From NCBI GenBank assembly GCA_016290195.1, contig JAEETF010000016.1, positions 12,879 through 76,878 of the forward strand: DNA of 64,000 nt. The letters are read 5' to 3'. The DNA is from Bacilli bacterium. GTDB taxonomy: Bacteria > Bacillota_I > Bacilli_A > RF39 > UBA660. Below the pieces are notes generated by a model, which had not been told where the DNA came from, searched no databases, and saw only the letters and a list, made by a program, of their open reading frames with translations. This document shows positions 10,343 to 50,329 of the stretch, in pieces. A program made the translations under genes and the position numbers. Position 1 is the first letter of the stretch, and every line of letters begins with the position of its first letter.

Positions 10343-11311
10343 TTATTTTTCAATTAAAAACGGAAGAATTTGTTCAACAGGTGTATCATGATAAATAATA
10401 TCAAATATTAAATTAATAATAGGCATCTTAATATTTTTGCTTGTAATTAATTTATGAATAGAATCTAAAGTATATAATCCTTCTATTGTGGTATTTTTGA
10501 TATAATTTTCAATTTCTTTTTTATCTTTTTTTAATCCAAGCATTTTTCCAAAAGTAAAATTTCTACTTTTAGGACTTGTACAAGTAAGAAGAATATCACC
10601 AAAGCCGGCAAAAGAAGTAATTGTTTTAGAATCACCACCAAGTTTTTCAATTAGATGTTTAATATCATTGGTAGCTTCAGTTATGAACATTGCTTGAGTA
10701 GAAATAGGTAGTCCTAAACCATCTAAAATTCCAGCAATTATGGCCATTACATTTTTAATACTTCCACATAGTTCAACACCGATAATATCTTTTGTTTCTC
10801 TTAATTTTACATGTTTATTTGCTAGAACATTTTTTGTAATATTAATTGTTTCAGTATTTTCACTAGCGATTGACAAACCAATAGGTACTTTATTTGCAAC
10901 ATCAATAGCAAATGTAGGACCAGAAATAACACATAATTTATTAGTATTAATTATTTCTTTAATAACTTTAGAAATAAATAAACAAGTATCTTGTTCTATA
11001 CCTTTAGAAGCTATACAAATATGTTTATCTTTTATGTATTCCTTATATTCAGTTATAACATTTCTAATAGTGCTAGCTGGAATAGCAATTATAACTAATT
11101 CAGAATTTATAATAGCTTTTTCAAAATCAGTAGTAATATTTATATTTTTATCAATATCAATATTTGGAAGAACAGGACTTTTTCTATTATTAATAATATA
11201 TTCTTTTTCTTCTTCAAATTTAGTCCATATTGTTACATTATGCTTATTTTCATTTGCAATAATACCTAAACATAAACCAAATGCACCAGCTCCAAGTATA
11301 CAAATATTCAT
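10343..11311 (-). CDS. gpsA: NAD(P)H-dependent glycerol-3-phosphate dehydrogenase
   Basis: 'MNICILGAGAFG' Rossmann start, 'ISGPTFAIDVA', and GpsA-like overall length. Confidence 0.9.
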   Translation of the reverse strand: MNICILGAGAFGLCLGIIANENKHNVTIWTKFEEEKEYIINNRKSPVLPNIDIDKNINITTDFEKAIINSELVIIAIPASTIRNVITEYKEYIKDKHICIASKGIEQDTCLFISKVIKEIINTNKLCVISGPTFAIDVANKVPIGLSIASENTETINITKNVLANKHVKLRETKDIIGVELCGSIKNVMAIIAGILDGLGLPISTQAMFITEATNDIKHLIEKLGGDSKTITSFAGFGDILLTCTSPKSRNFTFGKMLGLKKDKKEIENYIKNTTIEGLYTLDSIHKLITSKNIKMPIINLIFDIIYHDTPVEQILPFLIEK

Positions 11312-11416
11312 TACATCACATCCTTATTATTATTGTATCATAAAAGTTATTTATATTTGACTTTTTTAAAATTTAGAATACAATATTTATATCTAATTTA
11401 TATCTAGGGAGGTTAT

Positions 11417-12553: not shown

Positions 12554-13588
12554 ATGAACATAAAACCTAGTTATTTAGTAAGAAATGAAATAAAAATTGA
12601 TAAGAGTAGTATGAAACTTCATTCACTATCGGATGCAATATTAGGTGAAAAAATAGATTCAAATATTCCTAATTTAGATAAATATGTTAATTTATATCAA
12701 AAAAATAGAAAAAAATTAGAAGATTCATTTGAACATTCATTAACTCTTACGATTGAAGAATTAAGATATTTAAGTAATTTGTATCCCAAAAAATTAAAGA
12801 AATTTAAAATATGGCTTTATATTCAAAAACCAGGAGAAATTGGATATGAAGAATTAAAAAAATTTAAAAATAACTTTAATATGTATGCAGTTGTTGTAAA
12901 TAATTTAATGACAAAGCATGGGAAATTTAAACCACATATGATTAATTATAATTTATATCTTGAATACTCTAAAAAATTATGGGATATTGTAAGTAATATT
13001 GATTATGAAGAATGCTATAATTCTAATAATCCGCAAATAAATGTTTTTTGTAAGCTTTTAAAAGAAATAGTTAATAATGTTCAAAGAGGAGATGCAGACG
13101 AAAGTTATACTGAAAAACTTAGTAAAAATTTACAAAAATTTGAAAGAATTCCAGATGAAATAATTGGCTTAGTAAGTGGCGAATGTGTATGTCGTGGGAT
13201 GAGTGGAATTATTAGAGATGCTTGTGCATTAATAGGTATTAAAACAAAAGTTATTAAGGGTGAAAGAGATATAGATGGTCATGCATGGAATCAAGTAAAA
13301 TTAAATGGTAATTGGTATAATGTTGATTTAACATGGGATCATGCAAATATTAAGAAAAATATGGCACCATATTTTATTTTGAAAAGTAATAAAGAATTTA
13401 ATAGAACACGTGTAATGGATGAATCTAATAATATATGTTGTCATGGCGATTATATTTATAAAAGAACACTAGAACATGAATGTAATGTTTCTATTCCAAA
13501 TGAAATGGTAGAGTATTATTTATATAATTCGAAAGCAAAAGATGTTAAAAATGAAGGAAGAATTAAAAAAATGTTATTACATTATTAG
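12554..13588 (+). CDS. transglutaminase-like cysteine protease-fold protein
   Basis: Cys-His-Asp core: 'GECVCRGMSG', 'DGHAWNQV', 'NVDLTWD'. Confidence 0.55.
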   Translation: MNIKPSYLVRNEIKIDKSSMKLHSLSDAILGEKIDSNIPNLDKYVNLYQKNRKKLEDSFEHSLTLTIEELRYLSNLYPKKLKKFKIWLYIQKPGEIGYEELKKFKNNFNMYAVVVNNLMTKHGKFKPHMINYNLYLEYSKKLWDIVSNIDYEECYNSNNPQINVFCKLLKEIVNNVQRGDADESYTEKLSKNLQKFERIPDEIIGLVSGECVCRGMSGIIRDACALIGIKTKVIKGERDIDGHAWNQVKLNGNWYNVDLTWDHANIKKNMAPYFILKSNKEFNRTRVMDESNNICCHGDYIYKRTLEHECNVSIPNEMVEYYLYNSKAKDVKNEGRIKKMLLHY

Positions 13589-15243: not shown

Positions 15244-15576
15244 ATGAAAAAATATATGAAAGATTATATTAATAAAATAGATGAATTATTAAATAAAAAT
15301 GAAAAGATTAATAATGAAATTATATCAGAGCATTTAATTAAAATTAGTTTTTTTCAGCATGAAAGATTAATACATTTATTAGTAACACTTTTTTATGCAT
15401 TATTTGTCTTTATATTTTTAGCTTTTTCTATATGGATAACATATCAATTTTTAATAGTTGAATTAATACTATTAGTATTTTTAGGTTTTTATATTAAACA
15501 TTATTTCTTTTTAGAAAATGGTGTTCAATATATGTATAAACAATATGATAAAATGAAAAATAAGTTGACAAAATAA
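15244..15576 (+). CDS. hypothetical small two-TM membrane protein
   Basis: RBS 'gaaagga' before ATG 15244; two hydrophobic helices. Confidence 0.4.
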   Translation: MKKYMKDYINKIDELLNKNEKINNEIISEHLIKISFFQHERLIHLLVTLFYALFVFIFLAFSIWITYQFLIVELILLVFLGFYIKHYFFLENGVQYMYKQYDKMKNKLTK

Positions 15577-15625
15577 ACTATGTATGATAATTTAGTTATG
15601 AATTTGAAGTGAAAGGAGTGAGAAA

Positions 15626-15709
15626 ATGAAGAAATTTTATTGTTTTTATAATTATGTAGTATTGAGTAAAGATAAGTGGAAAGGAGTTTCTTCATTTTTC
15701 ACTTGTTAA
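15626..15709 (+). CDS. 27-codon upstream ORF (MKKFYCFYNYVVLSKDKWKGVSSFFTC): candidate leader peptide or exported peptide
   Basis: Strong RBS 'gaaaggagtgag' 6 nt upstream. Contains an internal SD-like 'ggaaaggag'. Its stop lies 6 nt before a hairpin. Confidence 0.35.
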   Translation: MKKFYCFYNYVVLSKDKWKGVSSFFTC

Positions 15710-15715
15710 CTATGC

Positions 15716-15746
15716 AGACTACATAATATATGTAGTCTTTTATTTT
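15716..15746 (+). terminator. intrinsic terminator or attenuator between the upstream ORF and the ABC exporter gene
   Basis: Stem 'agactacat'/'atgtagtct' with loop 'aatat', then 'tttatttt'; only ~10 nt before the exporter RBS. Confidence 0.5.
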
Positions 15747-15756
15747 GGGAGGTATT

Positions 15757-17487
15757 ATGAAAAATTTAAGAGAAATAAAACCTCTAATAAAATTTATTGA
15801 TGAAAAGGGAAAACTTATTTTTGCTAGTATTATGATTTTTTTATCAGGTATAGTAGGAATATGTTCTGGCTATTTAAATGGTGCTGCTATTGAATCTATA
15901 ACTAATATGGATGTTAAAATGGCATTAATATATTTATTAATTTATTTTATTTTAGAAATTACTTTTGATGGAGTATTTATTCAATGTGCAAATGCATCAT
16001 TATATAAAATTGAAAGTAAAATTACACGAAAATTAGGTTATGAAACATATAAAAAGACACTAGATTTACCATCTGAGGCATTTGAAGTACATACATCTGG
16101 TGAATTTATAAATCGTATCACTGGTGATGCTGATTGCTTAAGTTTTGCATTTGGTCGTCTTTTACATATGTTTTCTGAATTAATTGCGGCATTAATTATT
16201 ATTGTATATGTCTTTATTAATTCATGGATTATTGGATTAGAAATAATATGTTTCTTAATTATATTTTTTATAGTTATTAAGAAATATAATCCAGTTGTTG
16301 AAAAAATTCATAAAGATCGAAAAGCAGGACAAGATAAGTTTGCTTCTTTAACAAATGAATCAATTAGGGGTATAAGAGAAATAAAAACATTAGGTATTAA
16401 AAATAATGTCTTAAATGATATGAAAGAAATAATTAAGATTATTTTTGCTACTTCTAAAAAAGAAATAGATATTAATAATAAATTTAATATTATTACAAGA
16501 GTTCTTAGAACTATGTTAGAAGTAGGAACATTTATAATCTGTGTTATTTTACTTTATTATGGAAAAGTAACACTTACATTTTTTGTTGCTATGACATATT
16601 ATGTTTATAGATATATGTGGTTAATTGAAAATTTAAATGATTTAACAATTACATACCAAAAAACAATAGTATCTATTAAACGTGTTAATGAAATAGTATT
16701 AAATAAATTATATGAAGATGAAAAATTTGGTAATATAGAACTTACTAATAATAAAGGTATAATTGAATTTAAAAATGTTTCATTTTCATATCCTAATAAA
16801 GTTGAAACATTAAATAATTTTAATTTAAAATTAGAGCCACATAAAAAGATTGCGATTATTGGTAAATCTGGCCAAGGAAAATCAACATTATTTAATTTAC
16901 TTACTAGAATTTTTGATGTAAAATCTGGTGAAATATTATTAGATGGTGTTAATATTAAAGATTTAACTGAAAAAAATCTTCGAAATCAAATATCTATAAT
17001 AAGACAAGAACCTTTTGTATTTAACAGGTCCATAAAAGAAAATTTTGAAATTGTACGTAAAAACATAACTCTTGAAGAAATAAGAAAGTATTGTAAAGAT
17101 GCTTATATTGATGAATATATCATGAGTTTAGATGATAAGTATGATACTATTCTTGGAGAAGGTGGTATTAATTTATCTGGAGTTCAAAAACAAAGACTTG
17201 CTATTGCACGTACATTATCTAAAGGGGGAAAAGTAATTTTATTTGATGAAGCAACTAGTGCACTTGATAATGAATCACAAGAATATATTAAGAAGGCAAT
17301 AGATAAACTTGTAAAAAATCATACTGTAGTTATAATTGCTCATCGTTTATCAACAATTGAAGATGCCGATATTATTTATGTGATAGATAAAGGCCAAGTT
17401 GTATCATCAGGAACACATAATGAATTATTAAAAACAAGTAAAATTTATCAAAAACTTTATGAAAAAGAAGCTTTAAATTCGAAATAA
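15757..17487 (+). CDS. ABC exporter, fused transmembrane and ATP-binding domains (MsbA/BmrA-like half transporter)
   Basis: Walker A 'GKSGQGKST', signature 'LSGVQKQR', Walker B 'ILFDEATSALD', H-loop 'IAHRL'. RBS 'gggaggt'. Confidence 0.85.
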   Translation: MKNLREIKPLIKFIDEKGKLIFASIMIFLSGIVGICSGYLNGAAIESITNMDVKMALIYLLIYFILEITFDGVFIQCANASLYKIESKITRKLGYETYKKTLDLPSEAFEVHTSGEFINRITGDADCLSFAFGRLLHMFSELIAALIIIVYVFINSWIIGLEIICFLIIFFIVIKKYNPVVEKIHKDRKAGQDKFASLTNESIRGIREIKTLGIKNNVLNDMKEIIKIIFATSKKEIDINNKFNIITRVLRTMLEVGTFIICVILLYYGKVTLTFFVAMTYYVYRYMWLIENLNDLTITYQKTIVSIKRVNEIVLNKLYEDEKFGNIELTNNKGIIEFKNVSFSYPNKVETLNNFNLKLEPHKKIAIIGKSGQGKSTLFNLLTRIFDVKSGEILLDGVNIKDLTEKNLRNQISIIRQEPFVFNRSIKENFEIVRKNITLEEIRKYCKDAYIDEYIMSLDDKYDTILGEGGINLSGVQKQRLAIARTLSKGGKVILFDEATSALDNESQEYIKKAIDKLVKNHTVVIIAHRLSTIEDADIIYVIDKGQVVSSGTHNELLKTSKIYQKLYEKEALNSK

Positions 17488-17510
17488 AAAGATAAAATTA
17501 TCTTTTTATT
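17487..17510 (+). terminator. intrinsic terminator after the ABC gene
   Basis: 'aaagataaaattatcttttt'. Confidence 0.5.
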
Positions 17511-17606
17511 TTTTTACTTTTAATGTAAAGTATAATGTAAAATAATTTAAAAAATATATGATAATAATAATAATAATGATATAATGACCATAGAGTAGGT
17601 GAACTT

Positions 17607-18764
17607 ATGCTTAAACGATATAAGAAAAGCTATTTAGTTATAAATATAATCCTTATATTATTGCTTATTTTTACTTGCATAAATCTTTGGGCTTTAAAAA
17701 ATACTGGTTATTGGTTTTTAATTGCAACAATTGCAATACCAACAGCCATATTAATAGGAATATATGGCTATGAGGGTAAAAGTCGAAGGTTTAAATATGA
17801 ATTATCATTTTATGTATTCATATATACAATAGGTTTTTTGATAATGACATATTCACTTGGATTAATATTTGGATTTACTGGTAATGTTTATAAGCTTAAT
17901 TTAACCAATTTAGTTAATAACATTATTCCTTATGTGATGTTAATTCTTGTAACTGAAGTATTGCGATACGAGATTATTCGTAAAGGTGATGGTTCGACAT
18001 TAGCATACATATTAATTGTAATTATTTTAACAAATATTGATTTGAGTTTATTTCGTGATACATATGACTTATCTAATGGCGATGGTCAAATAAAATATAT
18101 TTGTGTTATTGCCATTCCTAGTTTATTTAAAAATGTAATATTGATGTATTATACTAAACTTGGTGGAGTATATCCTAGTTTAATATATAGGTTTCTGTTA
18201 GATTTAAAATTAGTAATTGTACCAATATTTCCAAATTTTGGCCTATATTTTGAATGTATTATTAATACTGCTTTACCAGTATTAATGATGTTTCTAATTC
18301 ATTTTAATTTGAAGAAATTTGAAGATGAAAATGAGAATATTAATATAAAAGAATCAAAAAAATATAAACTAGTTGTGATTATTATTATGCTTTCTATTGT
18401 TATTTTTGTTAATATTTTAGTAAGTTGTACACTCAAATATGGAATGATTGCCATTGGATCTAATAGTATGGTTCCAGAATTTGCTAGAGGAGATGCAATT
18501 ATATATGAAAAAGTTAATGCTAGTACTAATTTAGAAATAGGACAAATAATAATATTCAAAAAGGATAATAAAACAGTTGTTCACAGATTAATACAAATAG
18601 TGGACGTGGGTAATAACGAATATATTTATTATACTAAGGGAGATGCAAATGATAATCCCGATGGTTATCCAATTGAAAGAAAAAATATTATAGGAGTTTG
18701 TAAATTTAAAATTAAATATATAGGGTTTCCATCAGTAGTTTTAGGAGAACTTATACATAGATAG
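17607..18764 (+). CDS. fusion of a ~250-aa polytopic membrane domain of unknown family to a C-terminal SipW-type (ER/archaeal-type) signal peptidase I domain
   Basis: C-terminal TM anchor then 'GSNSMVPEF' (catalytic Ser), 'TVVHRLIQI' (His), 'KGDANDNPD'. N-terminal part has ~7 hydrophobic helices. RBS 'aggtga'. Confidence 0.7.
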   Translation: MLKRYKKSYLVINIILILLLIFTCINLWALKNTGYWFLIATIAIPTAILIGIYGYEGKSRRFKYELSFYVFIYTIGFLIMTYSLGLIFGFTGNVYKLNLTNLVNNIIPYVMLILVTEVLRYEIIRKGDGSTLAYILIVIILTNIDLSLFRDTYDLSNGDGQIKYICVIAIPSLFKNVILMYYTKLGGVYPSLIYRFLLDLKLVIVPIFPNFGLYFECIINTALPVLMMFLIHFNLKKFEDENENINIKESKKYKLVVIIIMLSIVIFVNILVSCTLKYGMIAIGSNSMVPEFARGDAIIYEKVNASTNLEIGQIIIFKKDNKTVVHRLIQIVDVGNNEYIYYTKGDANDNPDGYPIERKNIIGVCKFKIKYIGFPSVVLGELIHR

Positions 18765-18773
18765 GAGGTTGTT

Positions 18774-19799
18774 ATGAAAAAAATAAAAGATAATATAAAA
18801 ATAATTATTTGTTGTTTTTTAATACTTGCATTGAGTATATCTTTTATTTTGGAGTTTAGCTACGGAAAAAATAACTTATCCCGTAAAGGTATTTCTTTTA
18901 GTAAAGAAGCTGAGCTAAATTATGTAACATATCTAAAAAACAATAATCATTACAGTAGTGATTTTCTTGAAAATGATTATAATTATGTCGCTAATTTAGT
19001 TGATTATTTTAATTTGGATTTCAATTATTCATATGTTTTAAGTGAAAATATTGATTATAAATTGGATTATGAAATTGTAGGTTATTTAGAAATATATGAT
19101 AGCGATAATATGGCCAAGCCTATTGAAAAGAAAGAATATAATATTTTAGAAAAAGTGACGGAAGATAAAAAAGGTCAAGTTATTAATGTAGCACTACATA
19201 ATCAAAAAATAAATTATGAAACATATAGTAGTGTTGTTCAAATGTGGAAGAAAGAATTAAATCCAAATGCTAATTTAAAAGTTGTATTCAAAGTAAATTG
19301 GCAAGGATATTCAAAAGAACTAGAAAAAGAAATTTCAGATAGTTATACTAGTACTTTTGAAATTCCTTTATCAGAAAAAATAATTTCTATTTCAAAACCA
19401 TCAAATCATAATGAAACAGGATATATATATAGTAAACAATCTTTAGGAATTGTATATGTTGGATTAATGATTTTGACTGGAATATGTTTAATTTTAGTTA
19501 TTACTTATTTAATTATAACGATGATTAAAATAAATAAATCTAAATCTAAATATGAACAAAAAATTAAAAAAATCTTGCGAGAATTTGACCGTGCTATTAC
19601 TGAAGCTAAAGGTAAATTTAAAATTGAAAGAGGTGAGAAAGCAATTGAAGTTAGTGAATTTATGGAGTTGATGGATGTTCACGATAACTTACATGAACCT
19701 ATAATTTACTATAAAACTAGTGTGAATAAATGTACTTTTGTTGTTAGAAATGGCAAAGATATTTATTATACTATTATTAAAAGGGATGAGTATGAATAG
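18774..19799 (+). CDS. hypothetical bitopic membrane protein (N-terminal TM, ~190-aa extracytoplasmic domain, second TM, ~95-aa cytoplasmic tail)
   Basis: RBS 'aggagg'; 9 nt after the peptidase gene, so probably co-transcribed. Confidence 0.5.
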   Translation: MKKIKDNIKIIICCFLILALSISFILEFSYGKNNLSRKGISFSKEAELNYVTYLKNNNHYSSDFLENDYNYVANLVDYFNLDFNYSYVLSENIDYKLDYEIVGYLEIYDSDNMAKPIEKKEYNILEKVTEDKKGQVINVALHNQKINYETYSSVVQMWKKELNPNANLKVVFKVNWQGYSKELEKEISDSYTSTFEIPLSEKIISISKPSNHNETGYIYSKQSLGIVYVGLMILTGICLILVITYLIITMIKINKSKSKYEQKIKKILREFDRAITEAKGKFKIERGEKAIEVSEFMELMDVHDNLHEPIIYYKTSVNKCTFVVRNGKDIYYTIIKRDEYE

Positions 19800-19884
19800 T
19801 TTACACTATTTTACTATATGAATAAAAAAAATCTTGCTAATATAAATATTTTATGTATAATTAAAATAGAGAGGAGTTTAATAA

Positions 19885-20466
19885 ATGAAAAATAATACTA
19901 AATTTTTATATGGAATTGTTGCCGTTGCATTTTTATTATCTGTAATAGGTATTTCTGTCGGATTTGCATCTATGTCATCTAGTTTAGATGTTAAAGGACA
20001 AGCTGAGGTTGTACCTGCAAGCTGGAAAATTAAATTTAAAGATTTAAGTTCTGCAACTATTAATGGTAGTGCTACAGTTGTAACAGCACCACAAATTGAA
20101 TCTGATACTCATATTGGTGATTATGATGTAACATTATCAATGCCAGGAGATTCAGTTGTTTATACTTTTAAAGTTGCTAATAATGGAACTATCGATGCAG
20201 AATTAAGTGATTATACATTTGCTACACCAACAATTACTGGTACTGGTGATACAGCTGCTGCAGATGCTGCTATTGTTTCAAGTAATTTAGTTTATACTTT
20301 AACTTATGCTGATGGTACAGCTATTCAAAAAAATGATGAGTTATTAAAAAATACTGAAAAAACTTTAAAATTAACAGTAGCATATGATGCTAATGCAACA
20401 GAATTACCTACAAGTCAAGTAGATATCTCTGATATGGATATTACATTTACTTATTCTCAAAAATAA
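19885..20466 (+). CDS. secreted TasA/CalY/camelysin-family (Peptidase_M73-like) protein with a SipW-cognate-type signal peptide
   Basis: Signal 'FLYGIVAVAFLLSVIGISVGFASMSS'. 'LSMPGDSVVYTFKVANNGTIDAEL' resembles the TasA/CalY 'LKPGDS..KEF.L.N.GSL.IK' block. Beta-rich and Thr/Ala-rich. Confidence 0.6.
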   Translation: MKNNTKFLYGIVAVAFLLSVIGISVGFASMSSSLDVKGQAEVVPASWKIKFKDLSSATINGSATVVTAPQIESDTHIGDYDVTLSMPGDSVVYTFKVANNGTIDAELSDYTFATPTITGTGDTAAADAAIVSSNLVYTLTYADGTAIQKNDELLKNTEKTLKLTVAYDANATELPTSQVDISDMDITFTYSQK

Positions 20467-33544: not shown

Positions 33545-33750
33545 GTAGATTTAGTGAGGAAAAATATAAAGTAATTAATTATTTGGACATATAGAAAATT
33601 AGTGTTTGATGGAAACTAATCAATAATAATTAATGAATTACCTATTTGGAGCTAAAACGTATTTCTGCGTTAAAGAATTAAGTGCATAAGATTCTTATGA
33701 ATTAAGGTGGTACCGCGAGTTTTCGTCCTTAAATTTATAGGGATTTTTTT
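33545..33750 (+). ncRNA. T-box riboswitch leader
   Basis: Stem I base 'AGTGAGGA'. Conserved T-box sequence 'AAGGTGGTACCGCG' at 33704-33717, followed by a weak hairpin and a long U-run before the HAD-deoC-tyrS operon. Confidence 0.55.
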
Positions 33751-50083: not shown

Positions 50084-50161
50084 CGGGCGATTAGCTCAGT
50101 TGGTTAGAGCACCTGCCTTACAAGCAGGGGGTCATAGGTTCGAGTCCTATATCGCCCACCA
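50084..50161 (+). tRNA. tRNA-Val (anticodon TAC)
   Basis: Acceptor stem gggcgat/atcgccc; anticodon loop 'ctTACaa'; T-arm 'ggttcgagtcc'; 3' CCA encoded. Confidence 0.85.
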
Positions 50162-50165
50162 TTAT

Positions 50166-50241
<76 letters not shown>

Positions 50242-50245
50242 TTTT

Positions 50246-50329
50246 GGAGGGATAGCGAAGTGGCCAAACGCGGCAGACTGTAAATCTGTTCCTTCGGGTT
50301 CGATGGTTCAAATCCATCTCCCTCCACCA
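50246..50329 (+). tRNA. tRNA-Tyr (anticodon GTA), class II with long variable arm
   Basis: Acceptor ggaggga/tccctcc; anticodon loop 'ctGTAaa'; variable arm 'ccttcgggt'; CCA encoded. Confidence 0.85.

Follow-up and report, generated by a model that had tools for sequence, protein, structure and literature searches.

A predicted translation-sensing transcription attenuator in front of an ABC exporter gene of uncultured gut Bacilli

This analysis concerns a short leader that precedes an ATP-binding cassette (ABC) exporter gene in a Bacilli bacterium (GTDB lineage Bacteria; Bacillota_I; Bacilli_A; RF39; UBA660). The leader lies in a window of 64,000 nucleotides, by which we mean the whole stretch of DNA analysed, corresponding to positions 12,879 to 76,878 of the forward strand of contig JAEETF010000016.1 (assembly GCA_016290195.1). 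All coordinates are counted from the first letter of the window. An original prediction had described a 27-codon upstream open reading frame (ORF) with a strong ribosome-binding site, followed by an intrinsic terminator, and had likened it to leader-peptide attenuators. The features of the locus are given below; letters denote the RNA strands A, B, A*, C, D and E and, joined by a colon, the helices that they form.

15565-15593, plus strand: promoter, with -35 element TTGACA (15565-15570), a 17-nt spacer ending in TGa (extended -10) and -10 element TAATTT (15588-15593)
15600-15611, plus strand: 5' segment of the transcript, GAAUUUGAAGUG, with the putative start at G15600
15608-15638, plus strand: strand A, the 5' strand of the predicted anti-antiterminator, comprising the Shine-Dalgarno sequence (SD), spacer, AUG and first four codons; pairs with C
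15612-15618, plus strand: leader SD AAAGGAG, read from the sequence, with a 7-nt spacer to the ATG
15626-15709, plus strand: leader ORF of 27 codons, ATG at 15626 and TAA at 15707-15709, encoding the peptide MKKFYCFYNYVVLSKDKWKGVSSFFTC
15653-15660, plus strand: strand B, UAUGUAGU, the 5' strand of the predicted antiterminator, a mid-ORF copy of the terminator 3' arm; pairs with 15718-15725
15671-15686, plus strand: strand A*, GAUAAGUGGAAAGGAG, a putative SD-like decoy of A that contains GGAAAGGAG and forms the antiterminator apex; pairs with 15691-15707
15683-15711, plus strand: strand C, the ORF 3' end and stop codon; predicted to pair with A (OFF) or with A* (ON)
15716-15746, plus strand: predicted intrinsic terminator, with stem D (15716-15725), loop ATA, stem E (15729-15738) and U-tract (15739-15746)
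15747-17487, plus strand: exporter SD GGGAGG (15747-15752) and ABC exporter gene, ATG at 15757, 576 aa, PF00664 and PF00005

The upstream ORF with its strong ribosome-binding site was found as originally described, AAAGGAG at 15612-15618 being followed by the ATG at 15626. The longer stretch around this SD, AAAGGAGUGA, is presumably largely complementary to the anti-SD of Bacillota 16S rRNA. AAGGAG with an ATG 5-9 nt downstream occurs 12 times in the window, and 8 of these 12 occurrences start ORFs of at least 60 codons. The GC content of the window is 25.6%, and in the window alone an ORF as long as that of the leader appears in 7.7% of shuffles. A 56-aa ORF on the minus strand (15525-15695) overlaps the leader; having neither SD nor family support, it is probably spurious.

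The hairpin AGACTACATA/ATA/TATGTAGTCT at 15716-15738 has 10 bp and a 3-nt loop (-10.4 to -11 kcal/mol) and is followed by the U-tract TTTATTTT at 15739-15746; the stem of 9 bp originally described corresponds to the same hairpin drawn with a 5-nt loop. The predicted terminator consists of the hairpin 15716-15738 (-10.4 kcal/mol) and UUUAUUUU, and it is the only terminator-like site between 14500 and 18500, where 0.5 would be expected. Six nucleotides (15710-15715) separate it from the leader stop codon. The distance to the exporter had been misread: a gap of about 10 nt had been placed between U-tract and exporter ribosome-binding site, whereas the SD GGGAGG directly abuts the U-tract, and it is the start codon that lies about 10 nt away. 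This codon is the ATG at 15757, and neither position 15758 nor the TTG at 15745.

The drug-pump-like exporter is encoded by a single gene in which a transmembrane domain (TMD) is fused to a nucleotide-binding domain (NBD) (PF00664 and one PF00005). Its translation shows the Walker A motif, the Q-loop, the signature LSGVQ, Walker B with the catalytic Glu, and the H-loop. The protein presumably forms a homodimer, and its closest solved relatives are ABCB1 and MsbA. When compared with the NCBIfam equivalogs, the bacteriocin ABC models included, it scored under every cut-off, and the domain search, which gave PF00664 and PF00005 only, revealed no C39 peptidase domain. The nearest relative, with 72% amino-acid identity, belongs to the metagenome-assembled genome (MAG) 'Bacillales bacterium UBA7476'.

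The exporter protein was scanned against one genome per species, which returned 80 loci (numbered L001 onwards), almost all from MAGs of uncultured, AT-rich gut Bacilli, including Clostridium sp. CAG:302. The close orthologues, L001-L075, range from 72% down to about 43% amino-acid identity to the window exporter. Among the 63 genome loci with enough upstream sequence, the leader was recognized in 35, in 31 by motif and in four by eye (L015, L024, L031, L055). A metagenome scan with the 5' motif added approximately 47 further leaders; all 42 with enough downstream sequence precede the same exporter orthologue, while five were too short, and one other match was due to chance. The order of the unit is the same in each leader, namely promoter, GAATTT[GA]A[AG]G, AAAGGAGTGAGAAnATG, ORF, terminator, SD and exporter gene. 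No leader was found upstream of another gene, the SD motif elsewhere in the loci marking ordinary genes only, and no second copy was detected in the 64-kb window with the covariance model described below. Seven flanking proteins of the window were compared by tblastn with all 80 genome loci and returned no matches; because the flanking genes are without homologues in the other loci, the leader and the exporter represent a self-contained unit. Orthologues L008-L013 (56-63% identity) have neither leader nor terminator, while more distant ones (43-48%) retain the leader, and hence the leader must have been lost in some lineages.

Membership of the window in this group was assessed with a covariance model (R1) that was built from the sequence and A:C structure of 25 other loci, the window being left out. 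Its top match in the 64 kb was 15597-15715 (model positions 1-114), at 35.5 bits and an E-value of approximately 4e-4 under a rough calibration, followed by a next-best match at 18.5 bits. These values refer to a search with filters off; the default filters of cmsearch drop the window and most leaders of 20-30% GC, seed sequences included. The terminator is found in the same position in 64 of 67 distinct leaders (median -8.9 kcal/mol). The same architecture thus recurs, with covariation, in 67 distinct leaders, and at the level of sequence this confirms that leader ORF and hairpin form a conserved element and are not a product of chance; the evidence from the window alone is modest. The 6-nt gap between stop codon and hairpin holds for the window and is not a feature of the family, in which the computed gap extends from -68 to +42 nt (median 14.5, most between -17 and +33).

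The promoter belongs to the conserved unit. TTGACA, a 17-nt spacer ending in TGn, a -10 hexamer, exactly 6 nt and GAATTT recur in L001, L002, L014 and L017, and these loci have the promoter in common despite differing upstream genes. It is located 26 nt upstream of the leader ATG. In the window, the -35 element overlaps the final codons of an upstream ORF of 115 aa, and the -10 element is weak, with 3 of 6 consensus matches, and was overlooked by a simple promoter scan. From the promoter spacing, we infer that transcription starts at G15600. The sequence GAATTT[GA]A[AG]G is nearly invariant among the loci.

The leader ORF itself is conserved as an open frame. In the 67 distinct leaders it comprises 23-40 codons, mostly 27-29, while the other two frames are open for a median of 4 codons. 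Shuffling each locus gave p-values of 0.01-0.12 for the open ORF, which combine to p = 2e-10 by Fisher's method. The GGAG of the SD is invariant in the leader alignments. The ORF always ends beyond strand C, 10-46 nt past the site of base pairing with the A of the AUG. The encoded peptides show nothing comparable: among the 67, no residue after Met1 is conserved, and no stalling motif was found at either the N or the C terminus. Apparent peptide motifs (NSK, G-N/E, SH-F) were discarded, as they follow RNA elements that are translated in differing frames. The conserved nucleotides of strand C (AUUCUCAC and variants) are read in three frames, by 25, 17 and 14 loci, respectively, which shows that the conservation of C acts at the RNA level. 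The simplest reading of these sequences is that the selected trait would be the uninterrupted translation of the leader ORF and not its peptide product, late frameshifts being tolerated. The GGG of strand A* is in frame 0 in 28 of 33 leaders, 41-75 nt downstream of the ATG. A programmed pause at this rare codon was considered as an explanation and set aside; selection against early frameshifts that truncate the ORF accounts for the bias more simply.

The 27-aa leader peptide of the window is absent from the protein collections. In Clostridium sp. CAG:302 (L004, L006) the 35-aa leader ORF has been deposited as hypothetical protein CDB91371.1, and this ORF is present on at least 1000 contigs, in 35 near-identical variants.

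Folding of 15590-15770 yielded a structure of unusual stability (z = -4.6), consisting of the terminator and a long helix formed by 15608-15638 with 15683-15711, i.e. by strands A and C. Conservation of the pairings could not be read from a MAFFT alignment of full leaders (A1), which misaligns C and the terminator. It was replaced by alignment-free tests, in which duplexes of each leader with itself were compared with permuted partners, and by an anchored mini-alignment (A2). For A:C, the duplex energy was -14.8 kcal/mol with the strand's own partner and -9.5 kcal/mol with permuted ones (z = -10; 0 of 20000 permutations). In the anchored alignment of 50 leaders, 73.9% of cells were paired in register, compared with at most 54.5% when the partner was slid, and the covariation score of 0.317, against at most 0.159 for slid partners, was reached by none of 500 shuffles. 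At position -1 of the AUG, 21 leaders have UA, 14 AU, 12 CG and three UG, and none is unpaired. This alignment is anchored on predicted duplexes, and its pair counts therefore lean towards the structure.

A second helix connects strand B, in the middle of the ORF, with D, the 5' arm of the terminator. Its energy is -9.2 kcal/mol with the strand's own partner and -5.5 kcal/mol with permuted ones (z = -9; 0 of 20000 permutations), and B varies together with the terminator from locus to locus, the combinations AGUGACU/AGUCAC, UGACCU/AGGUC and GUAAUGUU/AACAUUA being examples. The original prediction had pointed to an alternative antiterminator overlapping the 3' end of the ORF. An antiterminator is indeed predicted; its strand, however, is situated in mid-ORF, at 15653-15660, and pairs with 15718-15725.

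Strand C has a further potential partner in A*, which in the window folds with it into a local hairpin of -11.7 kcal/mol. The corresponding purine motif, GGGAA or GAGAA (GGGAAU/GAGAAU), is located upstream of C in most loci. In the window, A* contains the internal SD-like sequence GGAAAGGAG at 15678-15686, which had been noticed originally and is present as claimed. This sequence belongs to an exact 9-nt direct repeat of the SD region, GAAAGGAGT, at 15611-15619 and 15679-15687. An RNA decoy of the leader SD, paired with the 3' end of the ORF, accounts for it better than a site for ribosomes does, and its resemblance to an SD would follow from A* mimicking strand A, which contains the SD.

There is one more helix, P0, in which the 5' end of the transcript (GAAUUUGA or GAAUUUAA) pairs with positions +4 to +27 of the ORF (CAAAUUC or UUAAAUUC). 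The comparison of own with permuted partners gave z = -4.7. P0 is present in most loci; it is weak in the window and clearer in L003, L004, L032, L035 and L094. It encloses the SD and the AUG in its loop and crosses A:C. Its sequence is read in three different frames and must therefore be constrained at the RNA level.

Some leaders, in regions located approximately 150-250 nt before the start of the exporter, depart from the common plan. L047 showed no separate terminator further downstream, and its C pairs with a downstream copy of A that is followed by a U-rich tract. L032, L040 and L036 have an extra copy, A', in addition to a normal terminator, without a clear B:D helix. In L025 and L052, the exporter SD is contained in the 3' arm of the terminator, which would add translational control.

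The effect of a ribosome on these pairings was modelled in ViennaRNA, without pseudoknots or kinetics. When the start site was masked as if occupied by a ribosome, the terminator pair probability of the window dropped from 0.95 to 0.39, and the mean of 30 loci fell from 0.73 to 0.32. Without the mask, the minimum free energy structure of most loci consisted of A:C and the terminator; with the start site masked, many loci instead adopted B:D enclosing A*:C. For window RNA ending with D, and with A masked, the predicted fold was precisely B:D plus A*:C, at -22.1 kcal/mol. When the modelled ribosome was moved along the ORF, the terminator probability was lowest at codons 1-4, reached a plateau over B, and was abolished by steric block at the last two codons. 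Enforced-pair energies from ViennaRNA (-4.2 and -9.6) looked unreliable and were left unused.

Taken together, conserved promoter, open ORF with strong SD, terminator and covarying antiterminator and anti-antiterminator lend support, from the sequences, to the leader-peptide attenuator reading of the original prediction, and we consider it probable that the leader is a translation-sensing transcription attenuator of the exporter. Its operation might be envisaged as follows. Transcription would begin near G15600 from the leader's own promoter and produce an RNA with two mutually exclusive folds. In the OFF state, A (15608-15638) would pair with C (15683-15711) in a helix that encloses B, so that the terminator D:E could form and transcription would stop before the exporter. 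In the ON state, a ribosome on the start site or the first few codons would occupy A, and C would pair with A* (15671-15686) instead; B (15653-15660) could then capture D (15718-15725) as D emerges, before E exists. With B:D formed there would be no terminator, and RNA polymerase would enter the exporter gene. An unhindered translating ribosome would cover B and A*, allowing the terminator to form, and without a ribosome A:C would form, and again the terminator. Read-through would thus result only from a bound, non-progressing ribosome, as is produced by antibiotics that target the peptidyl transferase centre or the A-site. As to the direction of the switch, we lean slightly towards the early ribosome stall as the event that turns the exporter ON. 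We infer this direction, the inducing signal (translation inhibitors) and the substrate of the exporter. Induction by translation stress is suggested by the anatomy of the leader and by the B. subtilis precedents discussed below (PMC4191407, PMC9226507).

Several observations weigh against this model. Helix P0 falls outside the proposed switch. No clear B:D pairing was found in L032, L036, L037 and L040, and in about one third of the loci masking of the start site shifts the terminator probability by less than 0.2. Since ViennaRNA forbids pseudoknots, the calculations to some extent presuppose that A:C and B:D exclude each other. In the window, the stop codon is 6 nt from the hairpin, and formation of the terminator would be blocked by a ribosome at the stop as well, contrary to the logic of the model. 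Moreover, once E is present, the terminator fold of the window (-25.8 kcal/mol) is slightly more stable than the ON fold (-22.1 kcal/mol); hence, the switch must be kinetic.

The proximity of stop codon and hairpin leads to an alternative in which translation and termination are coupled as in E. coli pyrBI, with a ribosome at the end of the ORF covering the 5' arm of the terminator, so that efficient translation would allow read-through and slow or absent translation would cause termination. The window fits this arrangement, its stop ending at 15709 and its hairpin starting at 15716, and the terminator probability fell to 0 at the last two modelled ribosome positions; moreover, in about 27 of 64 leaders the gap is no longer than 8 nt or the ORF enters the hairpin, as in L002 and L003. 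Coupling would, however, require neither B:D nor A:C nor A*, yet all three are conserved and covary, and the one distance on which it depends is unconserved (-68 to +42 nt, median 14.5). In addition, RNA polymerase outruns the ribosomes in Bacillota. We regard coupling as unlikely. Still less probable is a structured cis-regulatory RNA whose signal would not be the ribosome but, for instance, a protein, a small molecule or a tRNA, with the ORF being incidental. The conservation of nucleotides and structure without that of the peptide, together with the unusually stable fold (z = -4.6), would be in keeping with such a sensor, yet its interior loops are highly variable and have no conserved pocket, and no Rfam family, riboswitches and T-box included, matches the leader. 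The most conserved block is a near-ideal SD with an ATG, and the ORF is kept in 67 of 67 leaders despite the frame changes over C.

The original prediction had itself offered as an alternative that the 27-aa peptide is the product, be it a signal or a bacteriocin-like substrate of the exporter; a small regulatory protein may be added here, and in either case the terminator would set the ratio of peptide to exporter. A strong SD, the adjoining ABC exporter, the aromatic and Cys residues of the window peptide and the annotation of the homologous 35-aa CAG:302 ORF as a hypothetical protein (CDB91371.1) speak in its favour. The comparison of the 67 peptides disagrees with this idea: nothing past Met1 is conserved, no double-glycine or other leader motif was seen in them, and their conserved nucleotides are read in all three frames. 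The exporter, with PF00664 and PF00005 only, is without the C39 peptidase domain, and the covariation of B:D and A:C would be left unexplained, which makes this alternative slightly more improbable again than the preceding one. Finally, an ORF arising by chance in front of a hairpin that terminates the transcript of the upstream 115-aa gene is hardly credible. It could draw on the roughly 8% of shuffles that yield 27 codons at 25.6% GC and on the lack of any other terminator after the upstream gene, but this gene is absent from all other loci, where promoter, leader and terminator travel with the exporter, and it is already contradicted by the comparative data, including the covariance-model match of 35.5 bits. 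The comparison with known attenuators that follows refers to the proposed ribosome-controlled switch between A:C and B:D.

Selection between alternative hairpins by the position of a ribosome on a leader ORF is familiar from the E. coli trp operon and from ermC. The present leader differs from trp in having no run of regulatory codons and from ermC in that control acts at a transcription terminator and not through a sequestered downstream SD. A further case, lmo0919, is related to the vmlR-type attenuators considered below.

In B. subtilis, the bmrB leader ORF of bmrB-bmrCD is equipped with a terminator, an antiterminator and an anti-antiterminator, and the system responds to lincomycin, chloramphenicol and erythromycin as inducers (Reilman et al. 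2014, PMC4191407). The terminator is the more stable structure compared with the antiterminator, the choice between them is kinetic, and read-through is brought about by ribosome stalling; bmrB is 54 codons long and its coding region contains the terminator, and BmrCD is a heterodimer encoded by two genes (PMC4191407). The two systems resemble each other in the short leader ORF directly upstream of a type-I (TMD-NBD) ABC exporter and in the intrinsic terminator with predicted antiterminator and anti-antiterminator and a kinetic choice. They differ in ORF length, which is 27 codons here and 23-40 in the family, and in terminator placement, the terminator following the stop or merely overlapping it here. 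Furthermore, the exporter is encoded by a single gene (576 aa) with canonical ATPase motifs, leader SD and AUG belong to one strand of the predicted anti-antiterminator, and the SD-like decoy forms the antiterminator apex.

In the vmlR leader, an upstream ORF (uORF) of 3 codons lies inside the anti-antiterminator, a hairpin that cannot form while a ribosome is arrested at initiation (Takada et al. 2022, PMC9226507). The antiterminator, which has a small hairpin at its apex, excludes the terminator, and NusG-dependent pausing has been shown (PMC9226507). The present leader shares the location of the uORF within the anti-antiterminator, A:C covering SD, spacer, AUG and first codons, and the same three-state logic is proposed. 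In contrast to the 3 codons of vmlR, its ORF of 23-40 codons extends over all of the anti-antiterminator as well as the 5' strand of the antiterminator. The regulated gene also differs, as vmlR encodes a soluble ABCF ribosome-protection ATPase with two NBDs and no TMD, whereas here it is a membrane exporter. On the basis of ORF length, terminator placement, the one-gene exporter and the non-ABCF product, the leader would not be a member of either group, and its anatomy, compared with those described for bmrB-bmrCD and vmlR, points to a new RNA family of a known attenuator type. In gathering mode, Rfam release 15 returned no family at the leader, neither in the window nor in 14 related loci. 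In E-value mode the best match to the window leader reached 25.5 bits, compared with a gathering score of 60, and was on the wrong strand. A literature search on this clade combined with ABC transporters or antibiotic resistance found no prior description.

Directly 3' of the exporter, three genes on the plus strand (17607-20466) resemble a SipW/TasA-like secretion cluster. The first encodes a protein of 385 aa that joins a polytopic membrane domain to a signal peptidase I of the archaeal/SipW type (TIGR02228, 3e-25), the second a DUF5305 protein and the third a protein of 193 aa that matches no family and has an N-terminal hydrophobic segment, recognized by eye. The interval from 17487 to 17607 yielded no terminator-like site, and the cluster shows no linkage to the exporter in other loci. 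Elsewhere in the window, a T-box leader is present at 33548-33733 on the plus strand (95.2 bits, gathering score 93), three tRNA genes are clustered at 50085-50326 on the plus strand, and a plus-strand ORF of 206 aa at 10740-11360, which overlaps a minus-strand ORF at 10343-11311 and has no SD or family support, is probably spurious.

With more than 70 instances and covariation in two helices, the leader represents a well-supported RNA family that is missing from Rfam. The regulatory principle itself is already known; the compact design, in which SD and AUG serve as a switch strand and a decoy SD is embedded in the ORF, would provide a clean model for the conversion of start-site occupancy into a transcription decision. 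As a tentative generalization, to which we would not yet give even odds, the leader may be a generic sensor of initiation arrest whose ribosome-binding site is the sensing strand. Any agent that holds a ribosome early on the ORF would then turn on the homodimeric exporter, which would protect a large clade of uncultured, AT-rich gut Bacilli (Clostridium sp. CAG:302 group and relatives) from ribosome-targeting antibiotics as an inducible, intrinsic defence. If this is true, heterologous tests of regulation and drug spectrum would be possible without cultures of the gut Bacilli. For these uncultured inhabitants of the human and animal gut, the leader supplies a concrete, testable regulatory annotation for a conserved gene and marks translation stress as a probable inducer of the exporter, a point of relevance to the antibiotic response of gut Bacilli.

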